A DNA stretch of 5,772 nt from Escherichia coli (lineage in GTDB: Bacteria > Pseudomonadota > Gammaproteobacteria > Enterobacterales > Enterobacteriaceae): the NCBI RefSeq assembly GCF_050320075.1, contig NZ_CP190025.1; one strand, 5' to 3'. Positions 1-1,508 of the stretch are shown piece by piece. Under the pieces are notes generated by a model, which saw only the letters and a program-made list of their open reading frames with translations, made no database searches and was not told the origin of the DNA. The position numbers and the translations under genes are program-made. Numbering within the stretch: the first letter of the stretch is position 1; each line of letters begins with the position of its first letter.

Positions 1-1508
1 CGGTTGATTACCTGCTGGGGAGGGAGCGTAACCGCGAAGGCGCAACGGTGCTTCAGGGTAATCCGGAAGAAGTCCGGGAACTCATCGATGCCACGCCATT
101 TGCGAAGAAATACACGTCCGGTGTTCTGTCGTTCGCGGAGAAGGAACTGCCGCCGGGAGGACGTGAAAAAGTGATGGCGAGCTTTGAGCGTGTACTGATG
201 CCCGGTCTCGAAAAAAATCAGTACAGCATCCTGTGGGTGGAGCACCAGGACAAGGGACGGCTTGAGCTGAATTTTGTCATTCCGAACATGGAGCTACAGA
301 CCGGAAAACGCCTCCAGCCGTACTACGACCGCGCAGACAGGCCGAGAATTGATGCCTGGCAGACGCTGGTGAATCACCATTACGGACTGCATGACCCCAA
401 CGCCCCGGAGAACCGCCGGACGCTGACCCTTCCTGATAACCTGCCGGAAACGAAACAGGCACTTGCTGAGAGCGTTACACGCGGTATAGACGCACTTTAC
501 CATGCCGGAGAGATAAAAGGCCGTCAGGATGTGATTCAGGCGCTCACAGAGGCGGGGCTTGAAGTGGTCAGGGTGACGCGAAGCAGTATCAGCATTGCAG
601 ACCCGAACGGCGGGAGGAATATCAGGCTGAAAGGAGCATTTTATGAGCAATCTTTTACAGACGGGCGCGGAGTTCGAGAAAAAGCTGAAAGAGAGAGCCG
701 AATCTACAGAGAAAATGCTGAACGACGAGTTCAGGAAGCTCGGCGAGTCTGTCAGCGAGGCTGTGACCTCAAACGAGACGAAAATCAGAGACGCTATAGC
801 CCTGTTCACAGCCTCGACAGAGAAATCGCTGGAAAAACACCGGGAAGGGGTGAAAGAGGCGATGATGCAGCACAGGAAGGACGTGTTAAAGCTGGCAGGG
901 AATACGGGCATGATGTTACTGGGGATAGTCTTTCTCCTGTTTACCGCGAGTGGCGGGACGCTCTGGTATCTTGGCGGACGGATACAGACGAACCTGGAAG
1001 AAATCAGGAAGCAGGAAGAGACATTGCAGAAACTGAACGCGAAGACATGGGGCGTGGAGTTTGTGCAGGACGGGAACAGGAAATTCCTTGTCCTTCCGTA
1101 CGGGAAATCAGCGGAGGTGATTCCCTTTCAGGGGAAAGAGTGGGTACATCTGAAGGAGTGACACAGAGTGACAGAGCTGGAAATTCATTTGCTGAACGCC
1201 TTAGAGCAGCTGCAACAGGACTATATGCAGCGGCTGAGCGAATGGGAGAGCGCCTTCGTGGAATTGCAGAAGATGTTTTCGCTTACACAACGGGACAACG
1301 CGATGCTGAACGAGCGGGTCATGCAGTTGAGTCAGCAGGTGCAGCACTTGAGCGAGCAGACAGAACGCTTGAGCCAGTTATACAGCGAGAACTGGAGATA
1401 AGAGAGGAACGGTTGATACAGGAGCGCGAACATGTGTTATCCCTGGAACGGGAGCGTCAGCCGGAAATACAGGAACGCACGCTGGATGGCCCTTCGCTGG
1501 GATGGTGA
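1..1508 (+). CDS. mbeA: MbeA/MobA-type mobilisation relaxase, 3' portion (5' partial in the linear window; N-terminus is at 5727..5772)
   Basis: Frame-0 ORF is open from the window start to the TGA at 1506..1508. Translation PVDYLLGRERNREGATVLQGNPEEVRELIDATPFAKKYTSGVLSFAEKEL matches the recalled ColE1 MbeA N-terminal region. Codon straddling 5772/1/2 is CCG, so the frame is continuous with the ATG at 5727. Joined length of 517 aa equals the recalled ColE1 MbeA length. Confidence 0.93.
   Translation, partial: VDYLLGRERNREGATVLQGNPEEVRELIDATPFAKKYTSGVLSFAEKELPPGGREKVMASFERVLMPGLEKNQYSILWVEHQDKGRLELNFVIPNMELQTGKRLQPYYDRADRPRIDAWQTLVNHHYGLHDPNAPENRRTLTLPDNLPETKQALAESVTRGIDALYHAGEIKGRQDVIQALTEAGLEVVRVTRSSISIADPNGGRNIRLKGAFYEQSFTDGRGVREKAERESRIYRENAERRVQEARRVCQRGCDLKRDENQRRYSPVHSLDREIAGKTPGRGERGDDAAQEGRVKAGREYGHDVTGDSLSPVYREWRDALVSWRTDTDEPGRNQEAGRDIAETEREDMGRGVCAGREQEIPCPSVREISGGDSLSGERVGTSEGVTQSDRAGNSFAERLRAAATGLYAAAERMGERLRGIAEDVFAYTTGQRDAERAGHAVESAGAALERADRTLEPVIQRELEIREERLIQEREHVLSLERERQPEIQERTLDGPSLGW
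643..1161 (+). CDS. mbeB: MbeB mobilisation protein, nested in a different frame inside mbeA; contains a hydrophobic segment (MMLLGIVFLLFTASGGTLWYL)
   Basis: 172-aa ORF, ATG at 643 preceded by AAGGAG about 8 nt upstream; arrangement and size match the recalled ColE1 mbeB gene nested in mbeA. Confidence 0.85.
   Translation: MSNLLQTGAEFEKKLKERAESTEKMLNDEFRKLGESVSEAVTSNETKIRDAIALFTASTEKSLEKHREGVKEAMMQHRKDVLKLAGNTGMMLLGIVFLLFTASGGTLWYLGGRIQTNLEEIRKQEETLQKLNAKTWGVEFVQDGNRKFLVLPYGKSAEVIPFQGKEWVHLKE
1168..1401 (+). CDS. mbeD: MbeD mobilisation / entry-exclusion-like protein, nested inside mbeA
   Basis: 77-aa ORF starting with GTG at 1168, with GGAG centred about 10 nt upstream; same frame as mbeB, separated from it by its TGA stop and 6 nt. 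Coiled-coil-like, Q/L-rich sequence, consistent with recalled ColE1 mbeD. Confidence 0.78.
   Translation: MTELEIHLLNALEQLQQDYMQRLSEWESAFVELQKMFSLTQRDNAMLNERVMQLSQQVQHLSEQTERLSQLYSENWR

Follow-up and report, generated by a model that had tools for sequence, protein, structure and literature searches.

Mobilization genes of a ColE1-type plasmid

The window, that is, the whole stretch of 5772 bp analyzed here, is a complete circular ColE1-type plasmid, and PLSDB/MOB-suite assigns it to the class "mobilizable", which is a prediction only. The features of its mobilization region are collected in Table 1. The relaxase gene mbeA crosses the circular junction, and when its two segments are joined an unbroken ORF of 517 aa is obtained; the RefSeq annotation of mbeA (record positions 2133..3686) has the same coordinates. 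The mbeC gene, upstream of the relaxase gene, overlaps the mbeA start with its final 11 nt and is annotated as MobC family in both annotation copies of the record. The MbeA protein carries its catalytic Tyr, Y19, in the sequence PVDYLLG (motif I), and the motif HQDKGRLELNF gives H97, E104 and N106, the H-E-N motif III that replaces three histidines. MbeA matched NCBIfam NF047848 (relax_MbeA_E1) with 878 bits against a cut-off of 500, and a Pfam Relaxase match was also obtained.

Table 1. Features of the mobilization region (window positions; residue and codon numbers refer to the protein or gene named)
Feature	Coordinates	Strand	Description
mbeC	5390..5737	+	115 aa; ribbon-helix-helix nicking accessory; Pfam MobC 46 bits, NikA-like 40 bits
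mbeA, first 46 nt	5727..5772	+	ATG at 5727; continues over the circular junction
mbeA, remainder	1..1508	+	codons 16-517 and TGA; MOBP5/HEN relaxase
mbeB Shine-Dalgarno	631..636	+	AAGGAG, 6 nt before the ATG; within mbeA codons L-K-G-A
mbeB	643..1161	+	ATG at 643, TGA at 1161; 172 aa; +1 frame relative to mbeA
Dual-constraint segment	643..798	+	mbeB codons 1-52 (MbeB_N), equal to MbeA about 231-282
MbeA 283-403 linker	801..1163	+	unconstrained in the mbeA frame; in the mbeB frame, membrane and C-terminal portion of MbeB, under constraint
mbeD Shine-Dalgarno	1153..1158	+	AAGGAG, the last two mbeB sense codons; 9 nt before the GTG
MbeA C-terminal helical region, 405-517	1167..1505	+	405-482 common to mbeD; 484-517 mbeA-only
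mbeD	1168..1401	+	GTG start, TAA at 1401; 77 aa; in the +1 frame of mbeB; small helical mobilization/exclusion protein

Two further genes, mbeB and mbeD, lie within mbeA in another frame (frame index 0 for both, 2 for mbeA). The sequence-only reading had credited them with intact starts and Shine-Dalgarno sequences, and this was confirmed, with an AAGGAG ahead of the mbeB ATG and of the mbeD GTG. MbeB matched Pfam MbeB_N with 76.9 bits (cut-off 22; 1.4e-21), and MbeD matched both Pfam MbeD_MobD (119.8 bits, cut-off 21.6; 5e-35) and the NCBIfam equivalog NF033829 (plas_excl_MbeD; 119 bits, cut-off 60). For MbeB and MbeD, an older PGAP annotation of the identical record gives the very coordinates of Table 1. 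A scan of the + strand for sigma-70-like promoters returned no site within positions 1..1700, which is a weak negative.

The assignment of the three genes to ColE1 mbeA/mbeB/mbeD, made in the same reading, holds fully: mbeA has 97.4% nucleotide identity to ColE1 (NC_001371), and the offsets are equal. In this alignment MbeA differs from its ColE1 counterpart by 15 residues, MbeB by 5 (97% identity) and MbeD by 1. ColE1 has the gene order of the window and the same protein lengths (517, 172, 77 and 115 aa for mbeA, mbeB, mbeD and mbeC), with offsets from the start of mbeA of +689 for mbeB and +1214 for mbeD, and equal start codons, GTG for mbeD included. The backbone at 4146..5772 aligned to ColE1 586..2225 with 93.9% identity, and a ColE1-type oriT, predicted from this similarity, should lie within it upstream of mbeC. 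The window module is very probably a standard ColE1-type MOBP5/HEN mobilization module. The ColE1 mbeA/mbeB/mbeD/mbeC genes were reportedly treated by Boyd, Archer and Sherratt in 1989 (cited in PMC3447787); the nesting of mbeB and mbeD inside mbeA is already known textbook material, and its confirmation adds little.

The same layout, with "internally encoded MobB and MobD" inside mobA, is found in ColE1-superfamily mobA/mobB/mobD plasmids (pSNC3-Kan, pEC34B, pCS36-4CPA and the ColK/ColA group). In pSNC3-Kan, mobA occupies 1659-3212, mobB 2347-2865 and mobD, with a GTG start, 2872-3105; lengths and spacing are identical to those of the window (PMC9282650). For pCS36-4CPA, two of the genes are said to have "entirely ... 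overlapped" mobA (PMC5935869).

The cargo of the window differs from that of ColE1: colicin, immunity and lysis genes are absent, and an AT-rich tRNA/transporter module is present instead. The AT-rich cargo contains an odd gene, tRNA-Ser-like and with the anticodon CUU, which adjoins an uncharacterized protein family. For a cargo protein of 296 aa, searches of Pfam, NCBIfam, PADLOC and PDB sequences were negative.

Conservation of the nested genes among relatives

The nested ORFs were checked in relatives, and both are present in 64/64 distinct complete mbeA genes, whose taxa are Enterobacterales (Escherichia included), Vibrio, Aeromonas, Halomonadaceae, Neisseria, Moraxella and Thiomargarita. 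The mbeA frame is open to a similar end point in all 64 genes and in two distant relatives with a complete contig; in two other distant relatives, with cut contigs, it is open through the whole overlap. These four, more distant members of the MbeB family, are nested too. In 51 of the 64 relatives, 0-9 nt separate the mbeB stop from the start of mbeD. Decay does occur, because in the close relative NZ_CP095085 mbeA is frameshifted and mbeB shortened. The C-terminal half of MbeB exists as several unrelated-looking types among ColE1-superfamily plasmids, and that of the window is the ColE1 type.

The nested ORFs might be chance open frames that follow from the stop-poor composition of mbeA, and not genes. 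In a single-sequence test, with synonymous codons permuted and the MbeA protein held constant, 3% of permutations contained a +1 frame open for 176 codons or more (P = 0.03), because the R/E/G/D-rich composition of MbeA itself avoids +1 stops. This signal is modest, and the claim that mbeB and mbeD are genes therefore rests on the comparative data. The mbeB ATG lies within 6 nt of offset +689 in 64/64 relatives (exactly at +689 in 59), and the GGAG ahead of it is largely kept (GG at -10/-9 in 98-100% and AG at -8/-7 in 70-73% of the 64 genes), which argues against chance. So do the dNN/dNS ratios of the nested frames, which indicate purifying selection (0.26-0.31 for mbeB and 0.24 [0.15-0.36] for mbeD), the strong Pfam and NCBIfam matches, the size of the MbeB family (626 clusters), the confident MbeB model (mean pLDDT 86) and published genetics in which mbeD mediates mild exclusion of related plasmids (PMC11493245, PMC2831885). 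The comparative evidence for nested genes, read from sequence, is decisive; chance open frames are already refuted by it and retain practically no probability. The ColE1 arrangement of mbeA, mbeB and mbeD in the window is real and conserved, and no finding speaks against it.

Constraint on the two frames along the overlap

Frame-specific constraint was expressed as dNN, dSN and dNS with bootstrap intervals, obtained with a simplified OLGenie-like pairwise method, and set against a null simulation in which only the nested frame was selected; the simulation yielded MbeA-frame ratios of 0.79-1.42. In the relaxase domain, codons 5-224 have a dN/dS of 0.07, and mbeA position 3 accounts for 80% of the differences. 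Within the overlap, mbeB beyond its first 52 codons has 57% of differences at mbeB position 3. The sequence-only reading had proposed that 643..1401 codes in two frames at once and that the MbeA stretch encoded there is a low-constraint linker, and it had suggested codon-position-specific substitution analysis. The outcome depends on the segment: dual constraint is found at 643..798, more weakly at 1168..1401, and is missing at 801..1163. The linker description applies to MbeA 283-403, weakly to 405-482, and fails for 231-282.

At 643..798 the ratios are 0.25 [0.12-0.44] for the MbeA frame and 0.31 for the MbeB frame, and substitution is slowed at each of the three codon positions. Columns at least 90% conserved number 11/51 in MbeA vs. 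3/52 in MbeB, and MbeA is thus the more conserved protein at the amino-acid level in this segment. AlphaFold predicted a folded MbeA 1-228, a helix at 240-281 (pLDDT 66-81), and helices at 409-429 and 433-510.

In the MbeA 283-403 segment the MbeA-frame dNN/dSN is 0.79 [0.59-1.01], equal to the null, and the MbeB-frame ratio is 0.26. Here R, E, G and D make up 49% of MbeA residues, indels abound in the 29-protein alignment, and AlphaFold pLDDT is about 26 over 283-416. The MbeA model, built on that 29-sequence alignment, is of low confidence overall (mean pLDDT 54), and for this reason the term disordered rests on low pLDDT together with hypervariability. Over bases where MbeA is at ~26, the MbeB model reaches pLDDT 64-97; MbeB is predicted to consist of a long N-terminal helix with a hydrophobic stretch (G89-G112) and, after it, a small beta domain of four strands. 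When the MbeB model was compared with the PDB by Foldseek, no hit had an E below 1. Positive selection in the linker was considered, with an MbeA-frame ratio of 1.5 in ColE1-clade all-pairs comparison, and rejected, because the pairs are non-independent, divergent mbeB alleles are mixed and the null itself reaches 1.4.

For MbeA 405-482 the MbeA-frame ratio is moderate, 0.45 [0.27-0.77], with an upper bound that nearly reaches the lowest null value of 0.79; the mbeD frame is more strongly constrained there. The non-overlapped MbeA tail is under purifying selection (dN/dS 0.23 across the family, 0.10 within the ColE1 clade) and ends in a conserved GPSLGW, P513 being invariant in the 29-protein alignment. 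Read in the nested frames, the overlap has typical codon usage and GC3; read in the mbeA frame, both are atypical, and codon usage does not correlate with that of the remaining gene (r about 0); in the non-overlapped tail mbeA codon usage is normal (r = 0.75, GC3 0.66).

If the whole overlapped MbeA stretch (230-483) were a low-constraint linker onto which mbeB and mbeD had been overprinted, the unconstrained, disordered and indel-rich 283-403 would be readily explained. Against this stand the ratio at 231-282, where MbeA is better conserved than MbeB, the ratio at 405-482, which is below the null with columns invariant across the 29 MbeA proteins, and the codon usage of the overlap, which fits mbeB and mbeD but not mbeA as the coding frame. 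We consider such a whole-length linker unlikely. Of the overlapped MbeA stretch, only the middle third qualifies as a low-constraint linker, and the word is apt in one sense, because MbeA 283-403 connects the relaxase domain with a C-terminal region under selection.

A further alternative is that MbeA functions only as a relaxase domain of ~280 residues and that the rest is tolerated read-through without a function of its own. The neutral evolution and disorder of 283-403, the absent codon-usage correlation in the overlap and the choice of the nested genes over the relaxase by gene callers on metagenome contigs are consistent with it. However, the mbeA frame is open to a similar end in the 64 genes and the two complete-contig relatives and spans the whole overlap in the two with cut contigs, and the tail has low dN/dS, normal codon usage and the conserved terminal GPSLG. 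Functionless read-through is very unlikely, less probable still than the whole-length linker.

Age of the frames, expression and annotation

Codon usage, composition and disorder suggest that, in the overlap, the MbeA frame and not the mbeB/mbeD frame is the derived one. We tentatively propose, with slightly less than even confidence, that in 643..1401 mobB and mobD are older and that the relaxase ORF is a newcomer whose reading through them, in the -1 frame, would have given it a disordered tether, with 231-282 and 405-482 brought under selection later. At that same tentative strength, a newcomer relaxase frame would reverse the usual view, in which the small genes were overprinted on mbeA. 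The opposite polarity, with mbeB and mbeD as de novo frames, was examined as well. A new frame should be narrower in distribution, atypical in codon usage and richer in disorder than the ancestral one; the nested frames are none of these, their distribution being co-extensive with that of mbeA, their codon usage and GC3 typical, and MbeB folded where MbeA is disordered. Phylogenetic distribution was uninformative as an age test: even MbeB-family members at profile E ~1e-16 are still nested. A free-standing MbeB homologue was sought beside the short relaxase of a Cetobacterium plasmid, but the hhalign probability was 3%, and that relaxase is not MbeA-like.

In viral overprinted pairs, as seen in codon usage and disorder analyses of the Pavesi/Rancurel type, one frame is biased, disordered and atypical and the other folded and typical. 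The window resembles them in having a same-strand +1 overlap with one atypical disordered frame and one folded typical frame. It differs in which frame is which, since the atypical features belong to mbeA, the long host frame, and the typical ones to the small nested genes. In addition, parts of the atypical frame are selected. With the long frame as the derived one, the overlap would offer work on the origins of overlapping genes a bacterial case that is small but clean.

On the proposed scheme, a single mbeC-mbeA transcript would carry all the genes. Ribosomes starting at the mbeA ATG would read through 643..1401 and make the 517-aa relaxase, and the internal Shine-Dalgarno and ATG would direct synthesis of MbeB. 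The mbeD GTG lies six bases past the mbeB stop and its Shine-Dalgarno within the mbeB end, so translational coupling is probable. The first 52 mbeB codons are shared with the conserved MbeA helix, with selection on both frames; the remainder of mbeB is in effect MbeB-only, and its shifted reading supplies MbeA with a disordered tether rich in R, E, G and D. Of the two products of the mbeD stretch, MbeD is under the stronger constraint and the helical MbeA C-terminal region, which continues into the conserved tail, under the weaker. MbeB may be anchored in the membrane, and the MbeA C-terminus may have a role in recognition by the secretion system of a helper plasmid.

In the IncQ plasmids RSF1010/R1162 a small accessory gene, mobB, is nested out of frame within the relaxase gene mobA. 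According to the title of a 2007 paper by Parker and Meyer (cited in PMC3297438), MobB is reportedly required for the type IV transport signals of the relaxase, and IncQ MobB may be an analogy for what MbeB does. These plasmids differ from the window in having a MOBQ and not a MOBP5/HEN relaxase and one nested gene instead of two; the likeness meant here is one of layout. For MbeB and MbeD the literature roles are those of accessory mobilization proteins (PMC5935869, PMC11493245, PMC2831885).

Annotation pipelines cannot keep both coding layers: the earlier copy of the record lists mbeB and mbeD without mbeA, the current RefSeq copy lists only mbeA, and metagenome gene callers omit the relaxase. 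Because annotation keeps one layer only, the typing of ColE1-like plasmids by relaxase is affected, and so are counts of their genes. The constraint map also indicates where MbeA could be cut or tagged unharmed, and which single-base changes hit one protein and are silent in the other.

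Organization and conservation of the nested genes

The window is a complete circular ColE1-type plasmid of 5772 bases, with 100% identity to E. coli J-8 plasmid p0 (NZ_CP047007.1) and two other records; a number of other 5.8-kb plasmids, carried by E. coli and Klebsiella, are >98% identical to it. Owing to the rotation of the window, mbeA crosses the circular junction, and 5727..5772 and 1..1508 joined form one 517-aa ORF (current RefSeq label, 'plasmid mobilization relaxase MbeA').

As proposed in the sequence-only reading, 643..1401 holds the ColE1 mbeA/mbeB/mbeD arrangement: the ORFs, the Shine-Dalgarno signals, the family matches and the ColE1 layout all agree. 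mbeA codon positions 1, 2 and 3 correspond to nested positions 3, 1 and 2, respectively. Matches to Pfam MbeB_N (76.9 bits) and MbeD_MobD (119.8 bits), to the NCBIfam MbeD equivalog (119 bits) and to the MbeA model (878 bits) were far over the curated cut-offs, and the PLSDB version of this record places MbeB and MbeD at exactly these positions. Gene lengths and spacing equal those of ColE1, from which MbeA, MbeB and MbeD differ by 15, 5 and 1 residues, respectively. The sequence-level defining features of the ColE1 MOBP5/HEN module that were tested, namely the relaxase motifs, the nested mbeB-family and mbeD-family genes and an mbeC that overlaps the relaxase start, are all present.

Coordinates of the features (window positions unless a locus is named)
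Feature	Coordinates	Strand	Description
mbeB	ATG 643..TGA 1161	+	172 aa; +1 relative to mbeA
mbeD	GTG 1168..TAA 1401	+	77 aa; frame shared with mbeB, +1 relative to mbeA
Shine-Dalgarno of mbeB, AAGGAG	631..636		6 nt before ATG
Shine-Dalgarno of mbeD, AAGGAG	1153..1158		last two mbeB sense codons; 9 nt before GTG
Backbone segment	1..1696		aligned to ColE1 NC_001371, 97.3%
Backbone segment	4146..5772		aligned to ColE1 NC_001371, 93.9%
Cargo, unrelated to ColE1	1751..3990		31% G+C
Transporter-like protein, 394 aa	1795..2979	-	weakly similar to serine/threonine transporters (84 bits vs. cut-off 526)
Uncharacterized protein, 296 aa	2940..3830	-	adjoins tRNA gene
tRNA gene	4007..4095	+	class II, tRNA-Ser-like body: long variable arm, G73, GGAGAGG acceptor stem
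tRNA-like genes at loci of relatives	L096:2606-2694, L097:6086-6185, L098:4759-4858, L104:7993-8090

This sequence alone gives only modest support for nested genes beyond chance. When the synonymous codons of mbeA were permuted and the MbeA protein kept, 3% of 5000 trials had a +1 frame without a stop over 176 codons or more; this stretch of MbeA is rich in R/E/G/D, a composition that keeps +1 stops away. The comparative evidence settles the question. We scanned one genome per species (80 loci) and added 12 ColE1-clade plasmids from PLSDB. Two consecutive +1 ORFs (108–186 and 69–103 aa) were present in 64/64 distinct complete mbeA genes, whose hosts include Escherichia, Pectobacterium, Vibrio, Aeromonas, Kushneria, Neisseria, Moraxella, Pseudoalteromonas and Candidatus Thiomargarita. 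The mbeB ATG lies within 6 nt of offset +689 in all 64 genes (exactly at +689 in 59), and G at -10 and -9 before it is 98–100% conserved. A search with an MbeB profile yielded 626 clusters, and four of four more distant members are nested in an open relaxase frame. Broken nested frames in close relatives, which would speak against the arrangement, were not found: 11 of the 12 are intact, and the remaining one (NZ_CP095085) has a frameshifted mbeA and is evidently decaying.

Two divergent relatives have a shorter mbeA, whose stop is passed by the second nested ORF, by 4 nt in Ca. Thiomargarita (L070, 419 aa) and by 121 nt in Pseudoalteromonas (L081, 405 aa); at the edge of the family, nesting is therefore not always complete. 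Annotation fails to represent the two coding layers together. In PLSDB, the gene table of NZ_CP047007.1 has MbeB and MbeD and lacks MbeA, the 2026 RefSeq copy has mbeA and drops mbeB and mbeD, and in four metagenome contigs (L105-L108) the nested genes were called and the relaxase was omitted by the gene caller.

Constraint and predicted structure along the overlap

The nested arrangement is already known; what is added here is a three-part constraint map, which corrects the reading of this MbeA stretch as a low-constraint linker, and an indication, no more than a hint, that of the two frames the long one is derived. Differences were counted per codon position in independent gene pairs (85–99.5% identical), and dNN, dSN and dNS were estimated, the two letters giving the effect first in mbeA and then in the nested gene; dNN/dSN is the mbeA-frame ratio and dNN/dNS the nested-frame ratio. 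In the relaxase domain (mbeA only) dN/dS was 0.07, and mbeA position 3 took 80% of the differences. At MbeA 231-282 (mbeB codons 2-52) the mbeA-frame and nested-frame ratios were 0.25 (0.12–0.44) and 0.31 (0.14–0.70), with slowing at all three positions over the first 52 mbeB codons. At MbeA 283-402 (the rest of mbeB) they were 0.79 (0.59–1.01) and 0.26 (0.20–0.33), and mbeB position 3 took 57% of the differences. At MbeA 405-482 (mbeD) they were 0.45 (0.27–0.77) and 0.24 (0.15–0.36). The MbeA tail (484-517, mbeA only) had a dN/dS of 0.23 family-wide and 0.10 in the ColE1 clade.

As a control, evolution was simulated with only the nested frame under selection, which gave a null mbeA-frame ratio of 0.79–0.87 with uniform and 1.0–1.4 with BLOSUM-weighted acceptance. 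Against this null, the ratio at MbeA 283-402 means no constraint, that at 231-282 is clearly lower and that at 405-482 is probably lower. The low-constraint linker is confined to 283-402; the description fails for 231-282 and applies only weakly to 405-482. Amino-acid conservation over the 64 genes (conserved column, at least 90%) is consistent with the frame ratios: MbeA is the better conserved protein at 231-282 (11/51 conserved columns vs. 3/52 for MbeB), MbeD at 405-482 (12/71 vs. 4/70 for MbeA), and at 283-402 both MbeA and MbeB are hypervariable.

Structures were predicted with AlphaFold from alignments of 29 (MbeA) and 32 (MbeB) sequences. The MbeA model has a folded domain (1-228), a long helix (240-281, pLDDT 66–81), a segment with pLDDT of about 26 (283-416), and helices at 409-429 and 433-510 (pLDDT up to 81). 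The MbeB model (mean pLDDT 86) consists of a helix (2-134) that includes a hydrophobic stretch, G89-G112, followed by a four-strand beta domain (139-171); a Foldseek comparison of it with the PDB returned no match. From the two models, 801..1163 is predicted to encode a confident fold in one frame (MbeB) and disorder in the other (MbeA).

Alleles are replaced unusually often in the C-terminal half of mbeB (window ~800..1161), a hot spot of such exchange. Many plasmids in PLSDB align with the window to either side of it and not across it (two-piece matches, ~76% coverage), or over 1..800 only. At least three dissimilar types of MbeB C-terminal domain were seen ('...KTWGV...FLVLP...', the Cys-containing '...CGE..R.CV.V...' and '...GAGVTIY...'), which possibly reflect helper-plasmid specificity.

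MbeA ends in a conserved terminal G-P-S/T-L-G motif (1491..1505, residues 513-517, PSLGW). P513 is invariant in 29 MbeA proteins, and the terminal residues of distant relatives are DDYGFRM or DDYDFGM. The motif may be a signal by which the secretion system of the helper recognizes MbeA.

Expression and relative age of the frames

No sigma-70-like site was found on the + strand of 1..1700, so that MbeA, MbeB and MbeD would probably all be made from a single mbeC-mbeA transcript. MbeA would be translated from 5727, and MbeB would initiate at the internal Shine-Dalgarno/ATG, a start signal that lies within an MbeA motif, L-K-G-A-x-Y-E, that is invariant. Initiation of MbeD would be coupled to mbeB termination; the mbeB-mbeD gap is 0–9 nt in 51/64 relatives. 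In R1162, the type IV transport signals of the relaxase reportedly require a small MobB encoded within mobA. By analogy, MbeB may aid presentation of the relaxase to the coupling protein of the helper, and a transport signal may lie in the conserved C-terminus of MbeA. MbeB is described as part of the relaxosome and MbeD as a putative entry-exclusion protein (PMC5935869), and the mild inhibition that ColE1 plasmids exert on each other's transfer has been ascribed to mbeD (PMC11493245, PMC2831885).

By the usual criteria for overlapping genes (Pavesi/Rancurel approach), the older frame is the one that is ordered, unbiased in composition and typical in codon usage. For the three segments of the overlap, codon usage correlated with that of the relaxase domain at r = 0.56, 0.86 and 0.47 in the nested reading vs. 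0.04, 0.11 and -0.05 in the mbeA reading. GC3 was 0.70–0.76 in the nested frames and 0.34–0.41 in the mbeA frame of the overlap, vs. 0.66 in each of the two mbeA parts outside the overlap, and R+E+G+D made up 49% of the MbeA linker vs. 31% of the relaxase domain. By these criteria mbeB and mbeD look ancestral and the mbeA reading of the overlap derived. This order is given somewhat less than an even chance, because nested frames that are merely more constrained today would yield the identical pattern, and because mbeA and the nested frames have equal phylogenetic spread.

A third +1-frame ORF (53 aa, 1432..1593, +) starts inside the mbeA tail and ends beyond the mbeA stop; it is present as 53 or 65 aa in 10/11 intact ColE1-clade relatives and may correspond to mbeE/mobE, a gene that published work mentions as non-essential. 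In the bases shared with it, the mbeA frame has normal codon usage and is under purifying selection, and this speaks against the ORF being strongly constrained.

Replication region and AT-rich cargo

RefSeq calls a 52-aa 'replication initiation protein' at 4332..4490 (-), within the ColE1 origin (RNA II region) and adjoining RNA I (4205..4310). ColE1 replication requires no plasmid initiator protein, and the call therefore looks like a spurious annotation.

Of the two, the AT-rich cargo is perhaps more unusual than the nested genes. The 296-aa protein had no match in the libraries searched (Pfam, NCBIfam, PADLOC, PDB sequences), and its family comprises only 56 clusters, all annotated hypothetical and with no domain matches. 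In every examined relative outside the window's own plasmid lineage an MBL-fold hydrolase gene lies near the 296-aa gene, and most of these relatives also have a transporter gene; the window has the transporter and lacks the MBL-fold gene.

The tRNA gene has the anticodon CUU, which reads a lysine codon. Distant relatives of the 296-aa gene, found on plasmids of Salmonella and Enterobacter and in a MAG of Lentisphaerae, have a tRNA-like gene close by, with acceptor, D and T arms nearly identical to those of the window and a wholly different, enlarged anticodon arm (a long stem with a 13-nt loop); other relatives of the 296-aa gene are without any tRNA-like gene. With a Ser-inserting AAG decoder as the alternative, the kept arms and the replaced anticodon arm suggest an RNA that is charged by SerRS and used off the ribosome.
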